A stretch of DNA of 64,000 nt, taken from assembly GCA_041748855.1 (NCBI GenBank), contig JBGTCK010000038.1:78514-142513 (forward strand), written 5' to 3'. Origin of the DNA: Acidimicrobiia bacterium (lineage in GTDB: Bacteria; Actinomycetota; Acidimicrobiia; Spongiisociales; ZC4RG35). The notes beneath the pieces were generated by a model. It ran no database searches. It had not been told where the DNA came from and worked only from the letters and a program-made list of their open reading frames with translations. The number at the start of each line of letters is the position of its first letter. The stretch's first letter is position 1. This document shows, piece after piece, positions 1,474 through 13,695 of the stretch. Made by a program: the position numbers and the translations under genes.

Positions 1474-1785
1474 CTAGAGGCTATCGAATGCGGTGAGGGA
1501 GACGCCGGCCACGAACAGCAAAGCGAACGCCACAGCTCCGATGACCCATAGCGCTACGGACACGATTCCCAGGATCTTGCCTGCATTGGCAGAGCCCCGG
1601 TTCTCGGGGTTCCTCCGTCCGGCATCGATGGCCTCGAGTTCTCGGTTGCCCATCACCCAGGCCGCAATGCCAAAGGGAACACAGCAGATAACGCCGAGGA
1701 TCCCCAACACGAGGATGGTCGTTGCCTGGCTCTGTTCCGGATACGCGCTCGACTGTGGAAATGTCATGACGGCGATCCTAAACAC
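1474..1785 (-). CDS. DUF4190-like small membrane protein
   Basis: 103 aa with two TM segments flanking GNRELEAIDAGRRNPENRGSANAGKILG, which is typical of DUF4190. It sits adjacent to DUF2752 on the same strand. Confidence 0.6.
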   Translation of the reverse strand: MFRIAVMTFPQSSAYPEQSQATTILVLGILGVICCVPFGIAAWVMGNRELEAIDAGRRNPENRGSANAGKILGIVSVALWVIGAVAFALLFVAGVSLTAFDSL

Positions 1786-1802: not shown

Positions 1803-3077
1803 TTACAAACCGACTTTGTCGAGGGTCCGGTAAAGGAGGGAGGCGGGGTTGAGGAACCAGGGGTGGCCCCGGTAGTAGAAGCGCCCGTTGTGGGGGATCT
1901 TTGCAAATGGGCTGGTGGGCTCGTCACCGAGCAGCATCCCGGCGAGGTCGTGGCCGAGGAGGGTGGAGAGCCCGACTCCATGGCCCGCATAACCCATGGC
2001 GTACCAGGCTCCTTCGACATTCCCGATGTGGGGGATGAGATCGAAAGGGACTCCGAGTTTCCCGCCCCAGACGTGGCTGACTCCGGCGTCTCCGAGTTGG
2101 GGAAAGTAGCGAATGAGGCTGCTATGAAGGTCAGCTGCGCTGTCTTCCAGGGGCAGGTCGGTCTTCAGATTTCTCCTTCCCCCGATCAGGATCCGGTTAT
2201 CGGGGGTGCGTCGCATGTAATGGAGAAGCCGTCGTTTGGTGAAGGTCATCGCGTTGGCGGGGAAAACCGAAGCTGCCACGGCTTCCCCGAGGGGCTCGGT
2301 GACAATGATGTATGAGCCGATCGGCACCACCCGATTGCGAAGCTCAGCGATGGGGCGGCGCGTTGTATATCCGTTGGTTGCCACGACTACCCCTCCGGAA
2401 CGCACGGTCCCCTTTGCGGTTGTCACCTCGAAGCCCGGGCCCGATCGCTGAATTGCCTCGACCTCGCAGTCCGCGACCAAAAGGCCGCCCTGATCGGTCA
2501 CGGCCTGTGCCATGCCGAAGGAGAACCGGGCGGGTTGGATCCCGTAACCCTCGGGTTCGAAGAGTGCAGCTGTGAAGGCGTCTGAGCCTGCGATCTCACC
2601 TACCCGGTCCGGTCCCAACACCTCCCAATCGACCCCATAGCGGTCCCGATACCAAGCGGCGGTCTCGATAAACTTGGTTGCATCGCGCTGGTCCAAGCCC
2701 AGGGCTGCCATCCCGCTCTGGTTGACCTTGACGTCGATGTGGTTCTCCCGGCATAGCTCGAGGACGATCTCGATCGACCGCACTGTTGCGTGCCAGATTT
2801 CGTCGGCGATCTGCCGGCCATGAGACCCCTCCACAGCCCGCATCCCCGCCTTCACGTCGGGGGAGACCATGCCGCCGTTTATCGCAGACGCACCACCTGC
2901 AATCTCGCCGCTGTCGAGAACTACAACCGACTGCCCGCCACGGGCGAGCCGGAGCCCGGCGGATAGCCCGGTGAGCCCGGAACCGACGACCAGGTAGTCG
3001 GCTTCGGAAGGAATATCAGATTTGCCGAGGTCGGAGGGACGCGGATGGTCGTCGATCCAGAAGGGCCGCTGGATCAC
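1803..3077 (-). CDS. FAD-dependent oxidoreductase (DAO family, gamma-glutamylputrescine-oxidase-like)
   Basis: N-terminal dinucleotide-binding motif DYLVVGSGLTGLSAGLRLARGG. Length 424 aa. Its start overlaps the stop of the aminotransferase gene just upstream on the minus strand by 4 nt. Confidence 0.8.
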   Translation of the reverse strand: MIQRPFWIDDHPRPSDLGKSDIPSEADYLVVGSGLTGLSAGLRLARGGQSVVVLDSGEIAGGASAINGGMVSPDVKAGMRAVEGSHGRQIADEIWHATVRSIEIVLELCRENHIDVKVNQSGMAALGLDQRDATKFIETAAWYRDRYGVDWEVLGPDRVGEIAGSDAFTAALFEPEGYGIQPARFSFGMAQAVTDQGGLLVADCEVEAIQRSGPGFEVTTAKGTVRSGGVVVATNGYTTRRPIAELRNRVVPIGSYIIVTEPLGEAVAASVFPANAMTFTKRRLLHYMRRTPDNRILIGGRRNLKTDLPLEDSAADLHSSLIRYFPQLGDAGVSHVWGGKLGVPFDLIPHIGNVEGAWYAMGYAGHGVGLSTLLGHDLAGMLLGDEPTSPFAKIPHNGRFYYRGHPWFLNPASLLYRTLDKVGL

Positions 3078-11289: not shown

Positions 11290-12216
11290 TCAGCTTGGAA
11301 TTTCGATGGCCAGAGGCTGGCGGAACAGGTCTGGAGGAACCGGCGCCCCGGATCGGATCAACGCCACTTCCCATGAGGGGGAATAGCTGAGAGCCCAACG
11401 CAATGCGTTGACGGCTGCCTTGCCTGCCGGAATCGAAAATGGCAGAGGGGTCAGGCCCAGAATGGCACGCAGGCGGCTTGGCAATGTGGCGGCGGCTGCG
11501 TTGTGGAGCACGTGGTAGGCAGGTTTGATCGTCCGATCCAGTGGTGGGTCTTTGAGGAAGTCCACCGCATCTCGCATTGCTGATGACGGGGCGAGATCAG
11601 GGTGTTCGGCGATCCATCGGTGCAGCCCGGGGGCAGATGCAGGCATCGGATCCGAATCGAGGAGAGCGCCAACCCGGGTCTGCTCTTGGACAAAGAGGTC
11701 ACACTCAACTTCAGTCAGCGAGTGTTCGCCGTACACCTGATGTGCAACCAGGAATGAGTCGGTGAGGGCGTTGTGGACCCAGGCAGAGAAGTTGGGATCG
11801 GCAGCATCGTAATAGACCCCTCTTTCGGAGACACCCTTGACCCGCTTGTGGATTCGCTTCACGGTCTCCACTGCTTGTTCGACTTCGGGCATGGCACCGA
11901 AGGTGGTGGCCGTGACATACGCCGAGGTGCGTGACAGCCGCCCGAGCGGGTCGTCGCGGTATCGCGAGTGGTCGCCGACCCCGGCCACCACCTCCGGATG
12001 CGCGGCCTGGATGAGTAGGCCCCTGATTCCCCCGACGAAAGTTGCGACGTCGCCAATCACCTTCCAGGATACCGACCCCGGCCCGTGGAGACCCGGATCG
12101 CCCATGTAGTCGAAGCTCGAGGCCATCGGATACTCCACATGCCGGAACGGCCCGGAAGCCGCGGCCGCGATGCTGACGCGGATCTGCTTGATCGGGGAGG
12201 TCAGAGCCTCGATCAA
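11290..12216 (-). CDS. DUF2236 (MpaB/LcoP-type) oxygenase-family protein
   Basis: GPGSVSWKVIGDVATFVGGIRGLLIQAAHPEV..HSRYRDDPLGRLSRT is the conserved N-terminal block of DUF2236. Confidence 0.7.
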   Translation of the reverse strand: MIEALTSPIKQIRVSIAAAASGPFRHVEYPMASSFDYMGDPGLHGPGSVSWKVIGDVATFVGGIRGLLIQAAHPEVVAGVGDHSRYRDDPLGRLSRTSAYVTATTFGAMPEVEQAVETVKRIHKRVKGVSERGVYYDAADPNFSAWVHNALTDSFLVAHQVYGEHSLTEVECDLFVQEQTRVGALLDSDPMPASAPGLHRWIAEHPDLAPSSAMRDAVDFLKDPPLDRTIKPAYHVLHNAAAATLPSRLRAILGLTPLPFSIPAGKAAVNALRWALSYSPSWEVALIRSGAPVPPDLFRQPLAIEIPS

Positions 12217-12220
12217 ACTC

Positions 12221-12682
12221 TCAGCCCTCCTGCTCGAGGAGCTCTCCGAGTTGTCCGGTGAAATGTTCCCATCCTTTTAGGTATGCCGCACCCTCATCTT
12301 CGGAGCCGGACTCGCGACGGATGATGCTTGCCACGCTCATGCGGCCGTCTTCCGTTCTGCCATGCCTGTGTCGATGCCGGCCGACATTGCCCGTGTGTCT
12401 CCCGTTGCTGCTGGATGGAGGTTGGCCGGGGACCACGTTCCTTTGATCGCTGGGAGAGGTGGCGTGGGTTCGGGCAAACAGACGCCGGTCGGCCGGGGCT
12501 GCCGCGCTCATGTGGCCGTCTTCCGTTCCGCCATGCCTGTGTCGATGCCGGCCGACTTTGCCCGTGTGTCTCCCGTTGCTGCTGGATGGAGGTTGGCCGG
12601 GGACCACGTTCCTTTGATCGCTGGGAGAGGTGGCGTGGGTTCGGGCAAACAGACGCCGGTCGGCCGGGGCTGCCGCGCTCAT
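12221..12682 (-). CDS. questionable ORF spanning the tandem repeat (two 57-aa P/S/R/H-rich repeats plus a 39-aa unique tail)
   Basis: Its ATG overlaps the speB stop (ATGA) and the 171-nt period keeps the frame. No recognisable family. Third-position GC is roughly 70 percent by my count. It may be a non-coding artefact of the duplication. Confidence 0.3.
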   Translation of the reverse strand: MSAAAPADRRLFARTHATSPSDQRNVVPGQPPSSSNGRHTGKVGRHRHRHGGTEDGHMSAAAPADRRLFARTHATSPSDQRNVVPGQPPSSSNGRHTGNVGRHRHRHGRTEDGRMSVASIIRRESGSEDEGAAYLKGWEHFTGQLGELLEQEG

Positions 12683-12708
12683 GTGGTCGTCTTCCGTTCC
12701 GCCATGCC
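12329..12708. repeat. 171-bp tandem direct repeat, 2 full copies plus a 29-nt third start
   Basis: The string catgYggYcgtcttccgttc starts at 12338, 12509 and 12680 (period exactly 171). The two full units are near-identical by eye. The third start is the last 29 nt of speB. Confidence 0.9.
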
Positions 12709-13695
12709 GTTCAACACTTCGAGGACTATGCGGTTGGCCAGGTAGGCGGTCTGTTCTCCGGGCCCGTCGTAGGCGGGGGATACCTCGACGATGTCGGCGC
12801 CGAGCACTTCGAGCTCTCGTGAGATCCGTCGGATGGTGTCGAGGATTTCCCTCGAGTTGAGCCCGCCCGGCTCCGGCGTCCCCGTTCCGGGGGCCAAACC
12901 CGGGTCGACCACGTCGATGTCAACGGAGATGAATACCCCTTTGGCGCCGCCTTCGAGGCTGTACTCCACCGCTTCGTCGACTACGGCATCCAGCCCGCGT
13001 TTGCCGATATCCTCCATCATGTAGCAACGCATCTTCTGCTCCGACATCCACTCGGTGACGTCCGGCTCCGGCCAGTAACCACGCAATCCGATCTGGACGA
13101 AGCGATGGCCGGGCACTGCGCCGGTTTCGATCAAACGACGCATCGGGGTGCCGTGGCCGATAAGCGCCCCGTGCTGGTGCATCCCCGTGTCGGCGTGAGC
13201 GTCGAAGTGGATGAGCCCGACCTCACCAAAGCCGTGAACCCGGGCGACGCCCAGCGCATCGGGGAAGGTGATGGAGTGGTCGCCACCGAGGACGATTGGC
13301 ACTTTCCCGGAGCGGGTCACGAACTCGACGGTGTCGGCGATCTGGTCGATCGACTTCTCCAGCTGTCCAGGAAACACGTACACATCGCCGACGTCGACGA
13401 CGCCGAGGACCTCAAAGGGGTCGATACCGGTTGTCAGGTGGGGTCGATACCCATCCATGGCGCCGTAGTCGGCGTTTCTAATCGCTTGCGGGCCGAATCG
13501 GGCCCCGGGGCGGTAGGTGGTTCCCCAATCGAACGGGGCGCCGATGATCACGACATCGCCATCTCCCAGATTGTCGGGAGTCACCGCGGGAACGCCGAGA
13601 AAAGAGTTCCTGGAGGCGAAGGAAATGTACTCGGCCGAAGCGAATGGGATCTCGTTCTTTCGCTTTTCATATGGCGTTTCATACGGCGTTGGCAT
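12679..13695 (-). CDS. speB: agmatinase / ureohydrolase-family enzyme
   Basis: Mn-binding motifs LGGDHSITFP, IHFDAHADT and SVDIDVVDP are diagnostic of the arginase/agmatinase fold. Confidence 0.85.
   Translation of the reverse strand: MPTPYETPYEKRKNEIPFASAEYISFASRNSFLGVPAVTPDNLGDGDVVIIGAPFDWGTTYRPGARFGPQAIRNADYGAMDGYRPHLTTGIDPFEVLGVVDVGDVYVFPGQLEKSIDQIADTVEFVTRSGKVPIVLGGDHSITFPDALGVARVHGFGEVGLIHFDAHADTGMHQHGALIGHGTPMRRLIETGAVPGHRFVQIGLRGYWPEPDVTEWMSEQKMRCYMMEDIGKRGLDAVVDEAVEYSLEGGAKGVFISVDIDVVDPGLAPGTGTPEPGGLNSREILDTIRRISRELEVLGADIVEVSPAYDGPGEQTAYLANRIVLEVLNGMAERKTTT

Follow-up and report, generated by a model that had tools for sequence, protein, structure and literature searches.

Results

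The window, a 64,000-nt stretch of an Acidimicrobiia MAG (assembly GCA_041748855.1, contig JBGTCK010000038.1, positions 78,514 to 142,513), contains a speB-like gene of the agmatinase/arginase family that is followed by a tandem array, a remnant of an AHSA1/SRPBCC-family gene and an MpaB/Lcp-family oxygenase gene (Table 1). The minus strand carries all of the genes around the array at 12329-12708. Orthologues of the speB-like gene, with 80-95% identity, were found in 11 of the 12 other genomes of the genus. A 153-aa ORF runs through the array; its TGA is followed 4 nt later by the TTG at 12216 with which the ORF list begins the mpaB-family gene.

Table 1. Features of the speB junction, with positions in the window.
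Feature	Position	Strand	Description
MpaB/Lcp-family oxygenase gene	11290..12216	-	308 aa; last of the gene string; Pfam PF09995, E=3.4e-50
AHSA1/SRPBCC-family gene remnant	12221..12340	-	39 codons; codons 1-6 fused in frame to the last 33
153-aa ORF	12221..12682	-	Junction ATG plus E, twice, then the gene remnant
T3, oldest junction copy	12329..12366	-	3-4 substitutions; aligns to the G250 junction
E2, element copy 2	12371..12507	-	Covariance model R1, 109 bits, E=2.6e-23; 1 substitution vs E1
T2, junction copy 2	12500..12537	-	1 substitution vs T1
E1, element copy 1	12542..12678	-	Covariance model R1, 112.7 bits, E=3.8e-24
E1 stem P1a	12659-12667/12548-12556	-	
E1 invariant bulge	12650-12658	-	CGGCGTCTG
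E1 stem P1b	12642-12649/12557-12564	-	
T1, native gene junction	12671..12708	-	Unit positions 1-38: last 9 speB codons, TGA, overlapping ATG, GCGCGGCA
speB-like agmatinase/arginase-family gene	12679..13695	-	338 aa; Pfam PF00491, E=6.6e-87

In Tandem Repeats Finder, the array has a period of 171 nt and 2.2 copies, with 97% matches and without indels. Only 2 of 171 positions distinguish the full unit at 12538-12708 from that at 12367-12537 (98.8% identity), and the partial third copy, which is 38 nt long, has 3-4 substitutions relative to them. The original prediction of an exact 171-bp tandem duplication was therefore right about the tandem arrangement, and near-exact describes the repeat more accurately. 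The same prediction had placed the string at the unit boundary at 12338, 12509 and 12680, where we found it, and had assigned to each unit the last nine speB codons with their stop codon and an overlapping ATG (ATGA), which the sequence confirmed; codons and stop together span 30 nt. The inverted repeat CCGGCCGAC...GTCGGCCGG that had been noted is present in both units, as P1a of E1 and at 12488-12496/12377-12385 in E2.

Each unit is made up of an element of ~135 nt with a bulged 17-bp closing stem, which we call E, and a copy of ~30-38 nt of the junction between the speB stop codon and the start of the next gene, which we call T; the array has the layout T-E-T-E-T. T contains the last nine speB codons (…GMAERKT), the stop codon and the start codon that overlaps it, and the last speB codons carry the RBS of the next gene. 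The ATG of T3 is the start of the AHSA1/SRPBCC remnant. Since T3 departs from T1 at 4 positions out of 38, the T-E-T core predates the last duplication. The single substitution in E2, at 12386, breaks the last pair of P1b and leaves a U-U there.

A structured element within the unit had been anticipated, and E proved to be one. As single-stranded DNA or RNA, it is predicted to form a long hairpin with a GC-rich closing stem of 9+8 bp, which a near-invariant bulge of 9 nt (CGGCGUCUG) interrupts on the 5' side. Among full-length copies in 201 genomes, the bulge base that follows GCGT was changed in only one. The interior of ~75 nt is variable and retains only UCCCC and GGAG. In the stem alignment, 97.4% of 1669 cells were paired and compensatory changes occurred at 14 of the 19 pairs; none of 500 shuffles reached this level, and slid controls gave 28-44%. 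A separate HMM-based alignment placed Watson-Crick pairs in 1246 of 1309 stem cells. G-U pairs (16) and A-C pairs (10) were similarly frequent, and therefore neither strand is favoured. When the unit was folded as a single sequence, neither strand did better than shuffled sequence (folding energy z = -0.08), so it is the covariation, and not the folding energy, that argues for the structure. Consensus folding of the interior yielded no conserved helices, leaving the outer stem as the supported part. The Rfam search that had been suggested for the unit returned only noise across 11900-13000 at E up to 10 (best E=2-5.4, far under the gathering scores), and the unit matched no curated model. No terminator-like or promoter-like site was found at E.

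The ~142 nt downstream of speB had been treated as specific to this locus, which they are not: they belong to a family of dispersed hairpins found at many unrelated gene ends in related genomes. In the source genome, BLAST and model R1 located four E copies at three loci, the other two being a junction between two ABC ATPase genes (C61) and a site 5' of a histidine ammonia-lyase gene (C67). Of the 61 genomes of the family, 29 carried E, the copy number per genome ranging from 0 to at least 30, and the loci examined contained at least 89 distinct copies with conserved ends. Head-to-tail arrays with periods of 105-171 nt were frequent among the 61 genomes; those elsewhere consist of E and an array-specific spacer of 30-37 nt, and the units within one array are near-identical. 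The 5' motif of E was found in 48 stretches, in MAG records only, nearly all of which were labelled Acidimicrobiia or Acidimicrobiaceae, with a few assigned to Actinomycetota or to 'bacterium' and one to an Acidobacteriota MAG. The literature search found no paper that links Acidimicrobiia with MITEs and none with the motif string. E is an undescribed interspersed repeat family, almost entirely of uncultured Acidimicrobiia.

The neighbours of E are unrelated in function, and the element usually sits at a distance of 0-30 nt from a stop codon. Among 77 distinct elements, about 21 lay in sense orientation in a co-directional gap, 12 in antisense orientation, 12 between convergent genes and 2 between divergent genes, the last being 2 of about 60 classifiable contexts. 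Contexts also included tRNA gene ends. Nitrogen-related neighbours at the loci of the source genome (the agmatinase, a branched-chain-type ABC ATPase and histidine ammonia-lyase) had prompted us to consider a riboswitch or leader, an idea that was dropped when E turned up, in the wider census, in both orientations as well as at convergent gene ends and at the ends of tRNA genes. Thirteen elements lay at most 60 nt upstream of a sense gene, and in eight of these an open frame crossed the element and terminated at the start codon downstream or close to it, with an ATGA overlap in three cases. The ABC-ATPase junction of the source genome is again T-E-T, with a 15-nt duplication (AGGTGGCTCTCATGA), and, as read directly in the sequence, a 56-codon ORF extends there from ATGA to ATGA. 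The corresponding junction in G105 is T-E-T-e', where e' is a truncated copy, so that the copy number is about 1.2 in G105 versus 1 in the source genome.

The speB junction was found in several states among relatives, with no, one, about 1.2 or a truncated E, compared with two copies in the source genome. One unit had been expected ancestrally, and relatives do have fewer copies (0 or 1). G250 has speB, ATGA, an intact AHSA1 gene and mpaB, without E; its junction (...CATGAGCGCGGCGAGC) joins the speB stop directly to the AHSA1 start. G249 has the order T-E-T-e'-AHSA1-mpaB, with a left T boundary identical to that of the window, G246 has T, a truncated E and a partial AHSA1 gene, and G242 retains only a 12-nt remnant of the 5' end of E. 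In G105 the order is T-E-mpaB, and a 46-codon ORF ends 8 nt before mpaB. Two sequencing runs added further states. In run X4, a contig of a ~96%-identical relative joins 12328 to 12671, which corresponds to an empty site (speB-T-tail) with the same AHSA1 deletion as in the window, and in run X3, 288 other letters separate a single E from the tail. In the nearest congener, the E interior at this locus is only 77% identical to that of the window. The interior of the G249 element is 56% identical to the window's, and since non-orthologous copies are 48-62% identical, orthology of the G249 element is not demonstrable from its interior. E may have inserted repeatedly at the same site in the speB junction.

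These comparisons show that T-E-T is the older structure, which keeps the speB stop codon upstream of E and, behind it, an RBS and ATG for the downstream gene, and that the source genome underwent a very recent expansion by one unit. The expansion is placed as recent because the units are 98.8% identical, compared with 77% for the element interior of the nearest congener. Alignment of the remnant with the intact 134-aa gene of G250 revealed an in-frame deletion of 285 nt at an ATC microhomology. The comparisons likewise show that this deletion was an independent event. Congeners have other deletions in the AHSA1/SRPBCC gene or have lost it completely.

The source genome is a short-read MAG of 86 contigs that is 81% complete, and copy number was assessed from assembler unitigs, probably of the MAG's own sample. 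In run X1, the hot-spring metagenome in which the locus was best represented, the flanking unitigs had depths of 38.7-42.6 and the unitig common to both E interiors had a depth of 70.6 (1.7-1.8x the flanks). The E1-T2 junction unitig (12486-12559), which reaches into E2, and the unitig from the tail via T3 into E2 (11950-12385) had the single-copy depths of 43.6 and 42.6, respectively. These depths favour two copies of E at this junction.

The 153-aa ORF is present as originally described, a 57-aa repeat occurring twice before a tail of 39 aa. The tail had been called unique, a description that does not hold: it is what remains, in frame, of an AHSA1/SRPBCC gene whose intact form is found in congeners, with the intact genes of G250 and G003 matching PF08327 at about 3e-19 and the tail itself giving a tblastn match with 59% identity over 32 aa (E=7e-9). 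The repeat part of the ORF has a GC content of.68/.64/.70 at the three codon positions, versus.65/.44/.78 in speB, and relative to the element of G105, the nearest relative, a 1-nt indel shifts the frame after codon 14. Without codon periodicity and with a frameshift in the nearest relative, the ORF is therefore a by-product. It is a read-through artefact, in which reading from the junction ATG continues across two non-coding E copies into a gene remnant.

Mobilisation of E was examined in the same genomes. The Y1/RAYT transposase (PF01797) was found in none of the 61 family genomes and in 6 of 14 control genomes, and RAYT was rejected as a partner on account of this absence. TnpB occurred in 2 of the 61 genomes, which have few or no E, and was absent from E-rich genomes; its distribution is unrelated to that of E, and it too was rejected. 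Among the partial matches in the loci examined, there was no autonomous or parent element with E-matching ends. E has some of the features by which MITEs are recognised, namely arms of 9+8 bp at the ends of a 135-nt element, a length below about 400 bp and no transposase gene. A fixed-length target-site duplication was not general. Flanking direct repeats that scored at least 10 were found at 11 of 74 elements, compared with 1 of 300 controls; they were 10-52 nt long and mostly belonged to arrays.

Discussion

What is the origin of the 171-nt unit? We consider it likely, with a probability of roughly 80%, that the unit combines a dispersed hairpin repeat, E, with a re-copied junction, T, and that it represents an ordinary repeat of variable copy number, giving rise to neither a new protein nor a new regulator. 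Direct repeats for unequal recombination or replication slippage would be provided by the T copies and, after a duplication, by the E copies as well, and it is because they act as direct repeats that T-E-T would expand and collapse. E may behave like REP, ERIC and MIRU sequences in that it gathers just past stop codons and is tolerated within operons, where it may tune the stability of the mRNA or the coupling of translation. Handing ribosomes that leave speB on to the mpaB-family gene may be all that the read-through ORF does.

The leading idea of the original prediction was a recent slippage duplication of unremarkable, locus-specific sequence. The head-to-tail, 98.8%-identical units and the lower copy numbers in relatives fit this idea, and a recent local duplication did take place; what does not fit is a simple doubling, given the T-E-T-E-T layout with its older core, the membership of the segment in a family with conserved ends, and the same architecture at the unrelated ABC-ATPase junction. 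As a complete explanation, plain duplication is contradicted and very improbable; what remains of it is the final step in the history of the locus. Another explanation is that the array is an assembly artefact and that the true genome has one unit, as might happen in a short-read MAG, and E-family repeats are often found at contig ends in related MAGs. Unitig depth speaks against this explanation, as the shared interior has 1.7-1.8x the depth of the flanks, two distinct junction unitigs are each present at 1x, and fixed differences tell the copies apart, and we regard a true copy number of one as extremely unlikely. An equally slim chance attaches to the suggestion of an emerging repeat protein, that is, that the 153-aa ORF encodes a genuine repeat protein whose translation is coupled to that of speB, or that at any rate the 39-aa peptide is genuine. 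The frame opens with an ATG that overlaps the speB stop codon (ATGA), a unit is a whole number of codons long, and the tail is in frame and descends from a real gene. Opposing this are the flat GC periodicity of the repeat part and the frameshift in G105; moreover, a 57-codon frame is open by chance in ~31% of cases at 69% GC (a base-composition calculation), unit lengths at other arrays are mostly not multiples of 3, Pfam matches to the ORF were sub-threshold noise only, and about 95 of the AHSA1 fold's 134 residues are missing from the remnant.

A repeated regulatory RNA or terminator downstream of agmatinase had also been proposed. With no Rfam match, no canonical terminator and elements in both orientations, E is therefore not a dedicated agmatinase regulator. 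A broader version of this proposal is that E is chiefly an RNA element useful to the host, such as an intercistronic stabiliser, a processing site, a partial terminator or a protein-binding RNA, that has been recruited repeatedly, with the tandem copies at speB tuning downstream expression relative to speB. The near-invariant bulge, the UCCCC and GGAG motifs kept across genera and the covarying stem are what such an element would display, as is its position just past stop codons, which resembles that of functional REP elements, and the open frames that span 8 of the 13 near-upstream sense elements, 3 with an ATGA overlap, are compatible with it. The roughly 21 sense elements in co-directional gaps are nonetheless accompanied by 12 antisense ones, the G-U and A-C counts favour neither strand, copy numbers range from 0 to at least 30 even among related genera, terminator-like sites, promoter-like sites and Rfam matches are lacking, and the folding energy does not surpass that of shuffles. 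A role primarily as a host RNA element is thus possible but unlikely. The bulge and the two motifs point, even so, to a putative sequence-specific function that goes beyond a purely selfish-repeat model.

It is tempting to speculate that E is a mobile hairpin with an ssDNA or RNA intermediate, whose 5' arm and bulge (...GACCGGCGT^CTG...) would be recognised by a putative partner protein of its own, and that E prefers stop/start junctions and re-copies the junction upon insertion. We hold this idea tentatively and as rather improbable. The two independent truncated second copies, at the speB junction of G249 and the ABC-ATPase junction of G105, break off within the bulge at an identical nucleotide, and the G246 deletion begins at the opposite point of the stem; both observations are weak hints. 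Across the family, a search for the GCGT^CTG pattern yielded a single point variant besides the G105 copy already identified, and therefore the proposed cut site has two truncated copies behind it, or three end points if G246 is counted. If E does move in this way, the upstream stop codon and the downstream RBS and start codon would both be preserved upon insertion, and Acidimicrobiia would have evolved independently a coupling-preserving insertion like that of MIRUs.

By analogy, the closest counterparts of the E repeat are the mycobacterial MIRU-VNTRs and REP/ERIC-type repeats. REP sequences are short (20-40 nt), imperfect palindromes with a GTAG/CGTC head that form clusters of alternating orientation. 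E resembles the REP/BIME/REPIN repeats of Proteobacteria as an extragenic palindrome that lies just past stop codons, is rare between divergent genes, occurs in either orientation and in local clusters, and has a covarying stem with a conserved short tag. It differs from them in being ~4x longer (~135 nt), in having neither a GTAG nor a CGTC head, in clustering head to tail, and in the absence of a RAYT/Y1 transposase from all 61 genomes. The Rickettsia palindromic elements are likewise palindromic repeats that sit inside ORFs and are read through in frame, whereas the frame through E is created by the junction ATG and bears no sign of protein selection, and E is essentially intergenic.

MIRU-VNTRs are described, in the passages devoted to them in PMC3184786 and PMC12548453, as mycobacterial intergenic operon repeats with units of 40-100 nt and tetranucleotide flank repeats (Supply et al. 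1997), and the same passages attribute the tolerance of insertion to a coupling ORF. The likeness to E lies in tandem repeats inside actinobacterial operons that vary in copy number among close relatives, in unit ORFs whose ends overlap the flanking stop and start codons (-4, ATGA), and in the occurrence of empty and filled sites. This is a functional analogy, and E is set apart from MIRUs by description: E is found in Acidimicrobiia, its unit is larger (135-171 nt), its core is a long bulged hairpin, its coupling ORFs occur at some loci only, and its flank duplications are irregular (13-38 nt). ERIC, Correia/nemis and RUP are MITE-like repeats of 100-170 nt with terminal inverted repeats and a single long stem-loop (PMC3184786). 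E shares with these their length range, terminal inverted repeats, long stem-loop, putative co-transcription with genes and presence/absence polymorphism (PMC3184786), and it differs in having no fixed-length target duplication, no parent insertion sequence among the partial matches in the loci examined, a fast-diverging interior and a near-invariant asymmetric bulge.

The E family has practical consequences for the study of Acidimicrobiia. Gene callers will report spurious ORFs rich in P, S, R and H across E copies, and neither the 153-aa nor the 39-aa product should be given a protein name, the shorter being the remnant of an AHSA1/SRPBCC pseudogene. The family also breaks short-read MAG assemblies and creates sites of variable copy number, which could serve long-read metagenomes as strain markers in the manner of MIRU-VNTRs in mycobacteria. 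At the speB locus, a hairpin repeat sits between translationally coupled genes with a stop/RBS/start module duplicated behind it, and the resulting direct repeats would drive expansion, precise loss and decay of the neighbouring gene. The near-invariant bulge within a freely covarying stem points to a specific putative binding partner, and it is this part of the element that could prove to be new.

A tandem array of a hairpin element follows speB

The original prediction described a tandem array at the end of the agmatinase gene speB, and a check of the sequence together with Tandem Repeats Finder (period 171 nt, 2.2 copies, 97% matches, zero indels) bore out the array, its boundary string, the ATGA overlaps, the 57-aa repeats and the inverted repeat. 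All genes at the locus lie on the minus strand, and in minus-strand reading the two full 171-nt units are the same at all but 2 positions, with a third, partial copy of 38 nt that differs from them at 3-4 positions. Each unit is composed of a hairpin-forming element of about 135 nt, termed E, and a remainder, termed T, which repeats the end of speB, its stop codon and the overlapping start; the array can thus be read as T1-E1-T2-E2-T3. A separate 12-nt tandem duplication (TTTCATACGGCG x2.2) within the speB 5' end adds four residues (MPTPYETPYEK versus MPTPYEK in the related genome G105), so that SpeB has 338 aa here and 334 aa in G105.

Coordinates of the features discussed in the text
Feature	Location	Strand	Basis
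speB, arginase-family agmatinase	window 12679-13695	minus	PF00491, E-value 6.6e-87
12-nt duplication in speB	window 13665-13690		
171-nt array	window 12329-12708		Tandem Repeats Finder
153-aa ORF	window 12221-12682	minus	ORF call
AHSA1 remnant	window 12221-12340	minus	alignment to G250
MpaB/Lcp-family oxygenase gene (mpaB)	window 11290-12216	minus	PF09995
Second T-E-T of the genome	G000:C61:15868-16049 (L006 1469-1650)		
Truncated second E	L156 (G249), oriented locus about 2660-2690		
Truncated second E	L042 (G105:C67), 1667-1691		
Start of the G246 deletion	L148, about 2620		
Inverted E doublet	L012/L043 (G126:C7), about 291360-291662		

One possibility raised at the outset was that the array is an assembly artefact. 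In run X1, a hot-spring metagenome in which 88% of sampled words were present, the flanking unitigs have depths of 38.7-42.6, the unitig matching both E interiors has a depth of 70.6, and the unitigs that cross E1-T2 into E2 and run from the tail via T3 into E2 have depths of 43.6 and 42.6, respectively. These depths fit two E copies, since the two junctions are distinct and each at single-copy depth while the interior stands at ~1.75x, and they speak against an artefact, the evidence being assembler unitigs, not a long read, and probably from the MAG's own sample.

Covariation supports the predicted structure of E

When one unit was searched against the genome that contains the window, its positions 33-68 were matched on two further contigs, where a homologous element of ~133 nt lies between two ABC ATPase genes (C61) and another lies between genes for a CoA-binding protein and histidine ammonia-lyase (C67). 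Alignment of the own-genome copies with copies from related genomes defined E as a conserved 5' part, GCGGCAGCnnCGGCCGAC-CGGCGTCTG-TTTGsCCG, and a conserved 3' part, CGGsCAAA-GTCGGCCGG-CAATCA, around an interior of ~75 nt in which only UCCCC and GGAG are conserved and in which consensus folding brought out no conserved helices.

The predicted hairpin is supported by covariation and not by folding energy, for which single sequences gave no gain over shuffles. With a covariance model built from 13 E copies, standard pairs filled 97.4% of 1669 stem cells across 91 matches in an alignment fitted to that model, and in 14 of 19 pairs both partners had changed (191 cells). Such values were attained by none of 500 shuffles, and a slid-partner control reached only 28-44% pairing. 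An independent HMM alignment gave the same picture (1246/1309 cells Watson-Crick), with one stem pair split into GC 27, CG 21 and AU 19. G-U and A-C cells occur about equally often in this alignment (16 and 10), which favours neither strand. The stem carries a 9-nt bulge that is almost invariant: in 201 genomes, a search for copies with another base after GCGT yielded a single full-length point variant and a single truncated copy.

E is distributed like an intergenic repeat

The covariance model found four E copies in the window's genome and matches in 29 of 61 family genomes, with per-genome copy numbers from 0 to at least 30. Many copies stand in head-to-tail runs, such as a run of five at a 135-nt period in G222. 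That arrangement is the rule apart from a REPIN-like doublet of two inverted (convergent) copies ~55 nt apart in G126. Arrays elsewhere consist of E plus an array-specific spacer of 30-37 nt, and units are near-identical inside one array while interiors differ from array to array. About 185,000 species, each represented by one genome, were scanned for an exact match to the 5' motif, in a form limited to the subfamily whose 5' arm is one base longer; the scan returned 48 stretches, every one from MAG records and nearly all labelled Acidimicrobiia or Acidimicrobiaceae; the few others were labelled Actinomycetota, 'bacterium' or, in one MAG, Acidobacteriota.

When the contexts of 77 distinct elements (loci L009-L145) were classed by a simple GC3-based gene call, about 21 were sense and 12 antisense in co-directional gaps, 12 lay between convergent genes and 2 between divergent genes. 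The usual distance to a stop codon is 0-30 nt, and at least 16 elements have the stop codon of an antisense, convergent neighbour on or a few nt from the E 3' end; this end, …CATCA/AATCA, has TGA as its complement, and E thus abuts or supplies the stop codon. The distribution is that of REP, ERIC or MITE-type repeats and unlike that of a leader RNA. Neither a sigma-70-like promoter nor a canonical terminator is present at E. Several arrays (L160 in G222:C4, L168 in G227:C1, and L115) end directly against an apparent tRNA-gene 3' end on the opposite strand (…GGATTCGAACCTGCG…).

Probable gain and loss of units across the genus

speB is present in 11 of 12 other genomes of the genus, and ten of these eleven loci take in the speB-to-mpaB interval, which ranges from zero E to T-E-T-e' (e', a truncated second copy), in line with the expectation that relatives would carry fewer units. 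The left T boundary (…ACA|GGCATGG…) is common to G249 and the window, and the G249 T copies match G249's own speB end. Aligned to G250, T3 and the 39-aa tail, which had been described as unique, correspond to the native junction and an AHSA1 gene that lost 285 nt in frame at an ATC microhomology. In a relative ~96% identical (run X4), a contig joins 12328 to 12671 and reads speB-T-tail, with the same deletion and zero E; another relative (run X3) has one E, then 288 other letters, a length that fits the intact AHSA1 5' part, and then the tail.

State of the interval between speB and mpaB
Genome	Interval	AHSA1/SRPBCC gene
G250 (L150)	speB, ATGA, AHSA1/SRPBCC, mpaB; E absent	intact, 134 aa (PF08327)
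G249 (L156; speB 80% identical)	T-E-T-e', AHSA1, mpaB; second E cut after 25 nt	intact
G003 (L069)		intact
G246	T, E truncated in 3' arm, AHSA1 residues 77-131, mpaB	partly deleted
Window	T1-E1-T2-E2-T3, AHSA1 remnant, mpaB	partly deleted
G105	T-E-mpaB	absent
G242	first 12 nt of E alone	absent
G245, G119, G244	E absent	absent

E1 and E2 are ~99% identical, T1 and T3 have 4 mismatches in 38 positions, and between the window's genome and G105 the E interiors share 77% identity at speB and 75% at the ABC-ATPase junction. The simplest reading of these sequences is an old T-E-T, with one 171-nt unit gained very recently here and collapse or decay in other lineages. The substrate for gain and collapse may have been the direct repeats, T and, after its duplication, E. 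The ABC-ATPase junction has the same architecture and kind of variation: in the window's genome it is a second T-E-T, in which E is flanked by a 15-nt duplication, AGGTGGCTCTCATGA, that comprises a Shine-Dalgarno sequence and ATGA, and in G105 it is T-E-T-e', with an extra truncated unit. Other repeats also occupy the end of speB, namely a different tandem repeat with units of ~57 nt (...TCTCACTCCCCTTCCGGCTGTCGCAATCGTGCCGACCCAGTCCTTGACACCGAGA...) that runs into the contig end in G003 (L152, G003:C157) and an unrelated insert of ~300 nt rich in GGAGGG/CCCTCC palindromes in G248, and several repeat families seem to be drawn to this junction.

How E might spread and what it resembles

No Y1/RAYT transposase was found in the 61 family genomes, TnpB occurs in two of them that have few or zero E copies and is missing from the E-rich genomes, and no autonomous parent of E was seen. 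Direct repeats flank 11 of 74 elements versus 1 of 300 controls, mostly inside arrays, and are not general. One might speculate that a template switch with upstream re-entry would give flank duplications of arbitrary length. Two independent truncated second E copies, in G249 and G105, break off within the bulge at exactly ...GACCGGCGT|, and on the 3' strand the G246 deletion begins directly across from this point (GGGCAAAG|). Such a position may be prone to breakage or cleavage; a pattern search through the family brought up no more copies that end there, and the cases are too few for a cut-site claim.

By their defining tests, E is neither a REP-RAYT system nor a classical MITE with a fixed target duplication. 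An Rfam search, proposed in the original prediction, gave no match and places E in none of its families, and a literature search brought up neither work on repeats like these in Acidimicrobiia nor any mention of the E motif. E works most like MIRU-VNTR, REP or ERIC repeats and is taken to be an undescribed family of an already known kind.

The 153-aa ORF and the nature of the array

An emerging repeat protein had also been proposed for the array. GC at the three codon positions is flat in the repeat part of the frame (.68/.64/.70, compared with.65/.44/.78 in speB and.67/.49/.71 in mpaB), and by base composition an open frame of 57 codons has a chance of about 31% at 69% GC. In G105 one nucleotide of the element is missing after codon 14, which gives a different frame, of 46 aa, and unit lengths in other arrays are mostly no multiples of three. 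From these observations, the ORF encodes no conserved protein. It may nonetheless have a mechanical role: its start lies in the ATGA that overlaps speB and its end 4 nt short of the mpaB-family start, and ribosomes could therefore pass along the gene string by way of it. Similar spanning frames occur at C61 (56 codons, first ATGA to second ATGA), in G105 and in 8 of 13 elements directly preceding a sense gene; because open frames are common to begin with, such a hand-over is only inferred.

The recent gain of a unit and the structured element thus stand from the first reading of this locus, and the new protein and the unique tail do not: the 153-aa ORF is a by-product, the tail is a gene remnant, and the array itself is an ordinary, undescribed, copy-number-variable hairpin repeat.
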